Source: a phage
Length of the DNA: 64,000 bases
Reading direction: 5' to 3' (one strand)
Sequence record: PZ154895.1
The position numbers and the translations under genes were made by a program. This document shows, piece by piece, positions 881 to 1,874 of this stretch; the stretch's first letter is position 1, and each line of letters starts with the position of its first letter. The notes under the pieces were generated by a model. The model was not told where the DNA came from, did not search any database, and saw only the letters and a program-made list of their open reading frames with translations.

Positions 881-1461
881 TGATTAAATTGGTATTCGCT
901 TATTCTCCGACTAAAACAGTCGAAGGCTTTAATGAATTAGCATTCGGCTTAGGTGATGGTTTACCATGGGGACGAGTTAAAAAGGACCTCCAGAATTTTA
1001 AAGCTCGTACCGAAGGTACAATTATGATTATGGGTGCTAAAACGTTCCAGTCATTGCCTACATTACTTCCCGGTCGTAGACATATTGTAGTGTGTGACCT
1101 TGAGCGTGATTATCCTGTAACTAAAGATGGCGATTTAGCACATTTCTATATTACTTGGGAGCAATATATAGATTACATTTCTGGCGACGAAATTCAAGTA
1201 TCAATTTCTGGCGCGCCATTCGAGACTATGCTTGATCAGAATTCTAATGTTAGCGTAATTGGCGGGCCTGCTTTGTTATATGCTGCATTACCTTATGCGG
1301 ATGAAGTAGTTGTTTCTCGCATCGTTAAAAGGCATCGTGTTAATTCAACGGTTCAATTAGATGCAAGCTTTCTTGATGATATAAGCAAGCGTGAAATGGT
1401 TGAAAGTCATTGGTATAAAATAGATGAAGTAACAACCCTTACGGAATCAGTGTATAAATGA
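880..1461 (+). CDS. frd: dihydrofolate reductase
   Basis: 193 aa; sequence [32 protein letters not shown]... recognised as T4-type DHFR; ends ...TESVYK with TGA inside ATGA. Confidence 0.92.
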
Positions 1462-1469
1462 AATAACGC

Positions 1470-1829
1470 ATGGCGGAAAATATGAACTTTAATTATTACC
1501 CTATTCTATTAGAAAAAGACGCGAAACAACCAAAATGGCAGGGTCCTCAGTTTATTAAAGGCGTCTATCAATTAGTAGTTCCTAAAGACAAGATTTATAG
1601 CAGTTGTTTCACTGAATCCGCTTGTAGTATTTTCGGTAATAGTTCTCCGTATTGGAATTTTGATATAAAACTAGATAGAAATATCGATATTTGGTTGAAA
1701 GCTATGGATATTGGCAATATCACGTTTGATGAGAATAATTATCATATTATTGGTCGTTTTTCCAAACGTGGTAAAGAATTATATTTCACGCCTGAAATTG
1801 AAAGAAAATTTGATGCTAAACCGTATTGA
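1470..1829 (+). CDS. hypothetical protein (119 aa) occupying an insertion between frd and td
   Basis: ORF lies between frd stop and td start; no recognisable motif; start could also be the ATG at 1482. Confidence 0.5.
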   Translation: MAENMNFNYYPILLEKDAKQPKWQGPQFIKGVYQLVVPKDKIYSSCFTESACSIFGNSSPYWNFDIKLDRNIDIWLKAMDIGNITFDENNYHIIGRFSKRGKELYFTPEIERKFDAKPY

Positions 1830-1833
1830 TTAT

Positions 1834-1858
1834 TTAGCTTCATAAAATGTATTATAAT
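1834..1858 (+). promoter_or_regulatory. putative promoter for td (MotA-box-like tagcttca plus tataat -10)
   Basis: tagcttca 1834-1841, tataat 1853-1858, about 12 bp apart, 17 bp upstream of td ATG. Confidence 0.3.
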
Positions 1859-1874
1859 TTATATAAGGTACTAA

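Follow-up and report, generated by a model that had tools for sequence, protein, structure and literature searches.

The td.1 gene between frd and td of a T4-type coliphage: a common allele of probable lateral origin in a family resident beside frd

The 64,000-nucleotide (nt) stretch of phage DNA analysed here, from sequence record PZ154895.1 and referred to as the window, belongs to a T4-type coliphage (Tequatrovirus; top DNA matches at 98.6% identity) and carries a small gene, td.1, between the dihydrofolate reductase (DHFR) gene frd and the thymidylate synthase gene td, which overlap directly in T4. Our analyses revealed that td.1 at this position is an already annotated feature and the majority allele of the junction, found in about two-thirds of the genus, and that T4 represents the minority state. 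Sequence comparison indicates that td.1 is a long-standing resident of the frd-td interval in T4-like phages and not foreign cargo. The allele carried by the window probably arose from an old lateral insertion of td.1 into a direct frd-td junction, a reading that we favour over deletion of the gene from the T4 lineage.

The features of the junction, all on the + strand, are as follows.

880 to 1461: frd, dihydrofolate reductase, 193 amino acids (aa); taken from the list of open reading frames (ORFs) and labelled frd in all matching records
1455 to 1463: left copy of the 9-bp direct repeat TAAATGAAA, holding the frd stop and a td-start-like ATG AAA (1458 to 1463)
1464 to 1481: td.1 leader, homologous from about 1470 (ATGGCGGAAAAT) to the overlap of frd end and td.1 start in contigs L009 and L012
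1482 to 1829: td.1 (also RB32ORF229c; PHROG 1928), 115 aa, with the conserved start ATG 1482 (MNFNYY...)
1830 to 1874: A+T-rich td.1-td spacer of 45 nt, including AAGG at 1865 to 1868 and the elements 'tagcttca ... tataat'
1872 to 1880: right copy of the 9-bp direct repeat TAAATGAAA, holding the genuine td start
1875 to 2735: td, thymidylate synthase, 286 aa, uninterrupted, starting ATG AAA CAA

The 3' end of frd reads GTG TAT AAA TGA (S V Y K stop; TGA at 1459 to 1461), and the ATG within its ATGA (1458 to 1460) is followed by AAA TAA. These details and the td start at 1875 are exactly as described in an earlier note made from the letters of the window alone. The left repeat with the 3 nt behind it agrees with the td start, TAAATGAAACAA, at 11 of 12 positions, the sole mismatch turning CAA into TAA. 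The window holds 417 bases beyond T4, bounded by the exact direct repeat TAAATGAAA, and when the block and one repeat are taken out, the junction of T4 and RB69, GTGTATAAATGAAACAATACC, is left. In T4 (NC_000866), the overlap of frd and td is exactly 4 nt, ATGA, as the note had stated. The frd end (VYK stop) and the td start of T4 are the same as those of the window, in which, by contrast, 413 nt (1462 to 1874) lie between the genes and td has its own AAGG Shine-Dalgarno sequence; the two frd genes share 93.5% nt identity. A common word of at least 9 nt between the short boundary zones appeared in 312 of 20,000 composition-preserving shuffles (p ~0.016), and the TAAATGAAA 9-mer has seven copies on the + strand of the window, mostly at gene starts.

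The earlier note had described a 119-aa ORF at 1470 to 1829, counted from ATG 1470. The ORF itself stands, and its start probably does not. An A in place of the G of T2 and T6 at 1470 gives the window an upstream in-frame ATG that is specific to it; since T2 and T6 carry GTG there, the conserved start is ATG 1482, and the td.1 product is likely to be 115 aa rather than 119 aa long. Many relatives align from residue 4 or 5 onward only. The counterparts of the leader sequence ATGGCGGAAAAT in L009 and L012 are GGTGAAAAGCG and ATGGTGAAAAAC, respectively. The 115-aa protein is 100% identical among the window, T2 and T6, and the underlying DNA differs at 9–15 codons per comparison, all of them synonymous; summed over the three pairwise comparisons, 36 synonymous differences stand against 0 non-synonymous ones. 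Because these phages differ at synonymous sites alone, the codon pattern identifies td.1 as a genuine gene under strong purifying selection. It is nevertheless dispensable, since T4 and the phages with allele B (see below) do without it. PHROG 1928, a family without functional annotation, matches residues 8–115 of the protein with an E value of 9.5e-36.

The identical block occupies the identical site in T2, T6, RB3, RB5, RB14, RB32 and many other phages. Among 537 matching phage records, 353 cover at least 80% of a query spanning 1300 to 2000, and the td.1 protein is found at 90% aa identity or more in about 363 phage records. The gene is called td.1 in the T6 record AY262134.2 and RB32ORF229c in the RB14 record FJ839692.1, which also carries the remark "flanked by 9 bp repeat"; gene, site and flanking repeat of T6, RB32 and RB14 are thus all shared with the window. 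A literature search on the ORF names and the frd/td junction yielded nothing specific. The earlier note had proposed an insertion of about 0.4 kb that duplicated ATGAAA. The 417-bp block and the 9-bp repeat TAAATGAAA are indeed there; that they are peculiar to this genome is contradicted by T2, T6 and the RB phages, which, in the very comparison with T-even references that the note had put forward, hold the identical ORF at the identical place. The insertion as an event probably survives as ancient history, in view of the RB69 and VR7 junctions and the tree conflict described below, and fails as a claim about this genome.

Three alleles of the junction can be distinguished in Tequatroviruses.

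Allele A: td.1; about 363 records
Allele B: an unrelated 68-aa ORF (MSNKLKVKDVP...); about 135 records
Allele C: direct ATGA overlap; 32 records

The allele-B ORF starts on the ATG of frd's ATGA and ends as TAATG on the td start. Allele C is recorded from T4 and its laboratory derivatives and from about a dozen phages closely related to it. The td of the window is without the group I intron of T4, and the alignment of the window with T4 bridges the intron gap; the T4 intron (with I-TevI) lies about 542 nt into td and is present in IME340, the closest DNA relative of the window. We considered whether the T4-type junction travels with this intron, which occurs in all seven allele-C phages inspected. 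However, the intron is present with all three alleles, so that the link is one-sided and leaves the alleles unexplained, and the idea was rejected.

Several relatives show further variation at this junction. Unlike the window, where frd stops at ATGA, RB14-type phages have two extra A's, and frd reads on and overlaps td.1. In RB14 (L023, 760 to 800) and Phaginator (L024) these A's (TATAAAAATGAAAT) abolish the frd stop, giving a Frd of 204 aa (...VYKNEIPRGGKYEF) and an overlap of frd with td.1 of 11 nt. The resulting frd tail resembles that of the metagenome contig L012 (...VYGEKREF), and in RB14 the upstream ATG is likewise open in the td.1 frame. FL18 (L020), filed under Mosigvirus, combines a frd/td junction of the T4 type with the td intron, at about 94–96% identity to T4, which suggests that its frd/td region was imported across genera. 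In e11/2 (L021), the allele-C junction equals that of T4 over 72 nt, while the remainder of td exon 1 shares only 86% identity with T4 and falls in a cluster with RB14 and Phaginator, indicating a recombination breakpoint just inside td.

Beyond the genus, homologues of td.1 lie between frd and td, adjoining frd, in Kanagawavirus, Jiaodavirus, Moonvirus, Marfavirus and three metagenome contigs, at 30–66% identity and with 11 invariant residues. A homologue directly 3' of frd is found in at least six other T4-like phage lineages; in Roskildevirus and in Erwinia phage FBB1, a single ORF separates it from frd. When 1.84 billion representative proteins were searched exhaustively with a profile, only 43 clusters at 50% identity were found. 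The earlier note had raised homologues at other loci: none was found, the family occupying one and the same locus in each of the 13 genome contexts inspected, and neither a paralogue nor a second copy of td.1 was found elsewhere in the window. The td.1 family is confined to T4-like phages, with its native place directly 3' of frd. Since homologues adjoin frd in these other lineages, td.1 can be regarded as at home at this locus, and the view of the ORF as a brought-in cargo gene has to be abandoned. A separate observation concerns the NCBI protein P0015 (195 aa), in which the final 37 residues correspond to the C-terminus of a Jiaodavirus-type td.1 and follow an unrelated N-terminal part of 158 aa; it reflects a gene fusion or else a mis-assembly.

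In many phages td.1 is followed immediately by a second gene, orfX, which is its tandem paralogue (hhalign 99.2%, E value 6e-20) and occurs in L009, L012, L010, Kanagawavirus, Moonvirus and Marfavirus. The two share the motifs Q-x-K-W, HG-I/V-Y, G-N and GRF-x-K-x-G-x(4)-F-x-P, and in orfX the QKKW motif is followed by about 20 inserted aa. Contig L009 and Klebsiella phage Potts1 hold a full array, frd-td.1-orfX-orfY-td, in which orfY is a homologue of the allele-B ORF. The Potts1 record (L029) misses the first 26 codons of orfY, and its gp175 (541 to 1146), annotated as 'putative single stranded DNA-binding protein', is a dihydrofolate reductase homologue with 49–62% identity to Frd proteins. 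The window has no orfX, with at most its first codons left.

1813 to 1845, + strand: possible relic of the orfX start, ATG CTA AAC CGT ATT GAT (MLNRID...), compared with MLNLIKID... in L009

This frame overlaps the 3' end of td.1 and stops after 10 codons. The similarity lies mostly inside the td.1 coding sequence and is partly forced, making it weak evidence for what is possibly a remnant of orfX.

How did allele A arise? The boundary is symmetrical, in that deletion between the repeats gives the exact T4 junction. The case for insertion is built on the sister genera, on the phylogeny and on the left boundary. RB69 (Mosigvirus), with GTGTATAAATGAAACAATACC, and VR7 (Gaprivervirus), with GTATATAAATGAAAAATTATC, have the direct junction in the common form GT(G/A)TATAAATGAAA. 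Bootstrapped neighbour-joining trees of the three genes gave the following groupings.

td.1 tree: window with L009, bootstrap 99.5%
td.1 tree: window with L009 and Kanagawavirus, bootstrap 100%
td tree: L009 with Kanagawavirus, bootstrap 100%
td tree: window with L009, bootstrap 0%
frd tree: window with L009, bootstrap 0.5%

Both flanking-gene trees exclude the window from the L009 grouping, whereas its td.1 sits beside those of L009 and Kanagawavirus, a place expected for L009 and not for a Tequatrovirus; this incongruence points to the passage of td.1 from an L009-like lineage into Tequatrovirus. The aa identity between the window and L009 is 63% for td.1, 49% for frd and 79% for td, and in other pairs td.1 diverges faster than frd. 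The left boundary also looks composite: it consists of the frd end (GTGTAT AAA TGA), 9–12 td-start-like nt and a stretch from about 1470 (ATGGCGGAAAATATGAAC) that is homologous to the overlap of frd tail and td.1 start in L012 (ATGGTGAAAAACGTGAAT). Allele B offers a parallel. The allele-B ORF of JS98 is 98.5% identical to that of Tequatroviruses while the flanking genes are only about 76% identical, and lateral movement of cassettes at the frd-td site is on this account demonstrable from sequence. In JS98 (Dhakavirus, L015), this 68-aa ORF (orfY) is unannotated, lying at about 6215 to 6416 in a frd-td 'gap' of 202 bp.

We propose that the T-even ancestor would have had the direct ATGA overlap, as T4, RB69 and VR7 still do. 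Allele A would have arisen once, long ago, when td.1 from an L009- or Kanagawavirus-like relative was joined to this site by illegitimate recombination. The donor piece may have begun at about its own start codon, and a join just behind the first td codons would have produced the TAAATGAAA duplication. Homologous recombination in the flanking genes could later have spread the allele through the genus.

Several observations weigh against this scheme. The full array in the outgroups allows all three alleles to be products of deletion, and the presence of allele B in JS98 speaks for an occupied site in the T-even ancestor. The frd of RB14-type phages reads through into td.1, as in L012. Within the genus, the trees of the flanks (frd and td 5' sequences) are scrambled by recombination, and the alleles could not be ordered from them; the td.1 tree, moreover, is built on a short protein.

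The strongest alternative is that allele A, or a longer td.1 array, is ancestral, and that the T4 kin and, independently, RB69 and VR7 lost td.1 by microhomology-mediated deletion. The repeats used would have been TAAATGAAA or the ATGA gene boundaries, and the survivors would have been kept since the stop-start coupling of frd and td was restored. In favour of such losses are the td.1 homologues beside frd in many genera, the full arrays of L009 and Potts1, the exact re-creation of the T4 junction by loss between the 9-bp repeats, the read-through overlap of RB14-type frd with td.1 as in L012, and the rarity of allele C, whose 32 records are mostly T4 itself and its close kin. An 81-aa ORF just upstream of frd, present in the window and in other relatives, is also missing from T4. 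However, the same junction would have to arise at least three times or spread across genera, the td-start-like insert of 16–18 nt in an otherwise L012-like frd/td.1 overlap would be left unexplained, and the disagreement of the td.1 tree with those of td and frd would not be expected. We regard deletion as the less likely course and retain insertion of td.1 into a direct junction as the probable origin of allele A.

A self-mobile element, either transposon-like or a free-standing homing-endonuclease cassette, whose target-site duplication would be the 9-bp repeat, is a very improbable reading and effectively refuted. The direct repeat on both sides of the block would suit it, as would the label 'putative homing endonuclease' in one GenBank record and the location, since endonuclease insertions are known to concentrate in the nrd/td region of T-even phages (PMC2790892). 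Against it, the block shows no terminal inverted repeats and no GIY-YIG, HNH or transposase motif, and its protein has no match in Pfam, NCBIfam or PADLOC and a small beta-barrel as its predicted fold; the family keeps to one locus in every context inspected, with no further copy in the window. A transposable element was rejected as a candidate when, despite the direct target repeat, neither terminal inverted repeats nor a transposase or integrase gene (Pfam, NCBIfam) were found. A homing endonuclease was likewise rejected: no GIY-YIG, HNH, LAGLIDADG or related domain was detected in Pfam (E value up to 10) or NCBIfam, and the beta-rich fold has no nuclease match. A frame left open by chance in non-coding filler between the two genes, as the lack of a recognisable domain and of a strong Shine-Dalgarno sequence ahead of either candidate start could suggest, has a negligible probability as an account of the ORF and is already refuted by the 36-to-0 codon pattern, and the homologues in other genera with their invariant residues and the confident structure prediction also go against it.

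The hyperplastic regions of T4-type genomes are known for small ORFs that are exchanged as modules at gene boundaries. As in those regions, small non-essential ORFs are gained, lost and swapped here between core or quasi-core genes; in contrast to them, no flanking promoter/stem-loop cassette was found at the frd-td site, and stop-start overlaps serve as the exchange points. For the general picture of small-ORF exchange in T4-type genomes, see PMC2993671.

With regard to expression, the td.1 start lies 20 nt past the frd stop, and td begins 45 nt past the td.1 end, with its AAGG 6 nt ahead of the ATG. Descriptions of translational coupling between frd and td in T4 date from the 1980s. In the window, frd would stop at ATGA and td.1 would be translated from ATG 1482, about 20 nt downstream, while td is presumably translated from its own Shine-Dalgarno sequence and not by stop-start coupling to frd. 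The uncoupling of td from frd claimed in the earlier note is thus borne out as far as the replacement of the ATGA overlap is concerned, and uncoupled translation itself would follow from it. The three genes are probably co-transcribed from upstream promoters. The promoter-like elements (tagcttca ... tataat) that the earlier note had seen ahead of td find no support: in a scan for promoters and terminators, sites of this kind are at chance level, with 15 sigma-70-like sites in 600 to 3400 compared with 13.2 +/- 4.1 in shuffles. A single 9/12 sigma-70-like match lies at 1826 to 1855, and TTAGCTTCA resembles a MotA box. With a transcript start near 1860 to 1866, no more than about 10 nt of leader would remain. 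The spacer (1830 to 1874) is almost unchanged in T2, T6, RB14 and wV7, and is 30 nt shorter in Phaginator. Given the chance-level site density, the almost absent leader and the shorter spacer of Phaginator, a td promoter in the spacer is not supported by the sequence. No further copy of the spacer was found within the window, and neither the td.1 leader nor the spacer folds better than shuffled RNA (spacer z -0.59).

The AlphaFold model of Td.1 has a pLDDT of 80.7 and predicts a small beta-barrel that is weakly OB-like; the OB-fold proteins to which it was likened are RPA14/32, Stn1-Ten1, Teb1, the Rrp40 S1 domain and RecO. The calculated isoelectric point is 8.5, with 16 K+R against 14 D+E residues, values that are not decisive for nucleic-acid binding. 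In agreement with the earlier note, which had seen no recognisable motif, domain searches of Td.1 returned nothing in Pfam (E value up to 10), NCBIfam or PADLOC, and 18 orfX-type paralogues gave nothing significant in Pfam. The absence of a PADLOC match is a weak test of a defence or anti-defence family, PADLOC covering defence systems and not phage counter-defence. Structure matches in BFVD were limited to uncharacterised proteins of T4-like phages. A match to TagH among PDB sequences (E value 0.0013, within the ABC ATPase domain) is marginal and was treated as chance, and the GenBank product names 'reductase', 'putative dihydrofolate reductase', 'glucose-1-phosphate adenylyltransferase' and 'homing endonuclease' are unsupported by any search. 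Our best guess, at low confidence, is that Td.1 may be a small beta-barrel of OB-like type, produced early along with frd and td and binding nucleic acid or a partner protein of nucleotide synthesis or replication. A more far-reaching proposal, which we consider quite doubtful, is that Td.1 and OrfX might form an unrecognised OB-like family dedicated to the DHFR-thymidylate synthase module, with ATGA overlaps as the preferred joining points between genera.

Other differences from T4 were noted in the neighbourhood. The 81-aa ORF at 635 to 880, which ends at the frd start, is evidently another small-ORF indel relative to T4; T4 has a short gap only (638 to 863 being unmatched), and a hypothetical protein is annotated at this position in HY03, RB14, T6 and others. 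Near the 3' end of td, about 100 nt (2578 to 2676) have no megablast match to T4 between flanks of 95% identity and look like a locally divergent, mosaic patch. After nrdA, an ORF for an HNH-type endonuclease of 243 aa occupies 5557 to 6288, where T4 has the 141-aa mobE; 5724 to 6287 is without a megablast match in the corresponding T4 region.

To conclude, td.1 between frd and td is in itself already known and common, and matters little as it stands. As the T4 reference is the minority state, a sequence that is 'extra relative to T4' need not have been 'inserted here'. The td.1 family is conserved, closely linked to DHFR and restricted to T4-like phages. If the doubtful proposal of a dedicated OB-like family were true, Td.1 and OrfX might act as an adaptor or regulator of the complex synthesising deoxynucleoside triphosphates, or as RNA-binding regulators of frd and td expression, and ATGA stop-start overlaps would be preferred joining points for gene swaps between phage genera. 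Beyond what the databases record, the three frd-td alleles can be interpreted as fragments of a longer ancestral array (td.1, orfX, orfY), and because the td.1 tree disagrees strongly with those of the flanking genes, td.1 would be a small, clean case of a gene-sized piece exchanged laterally at a stop-start overlap.
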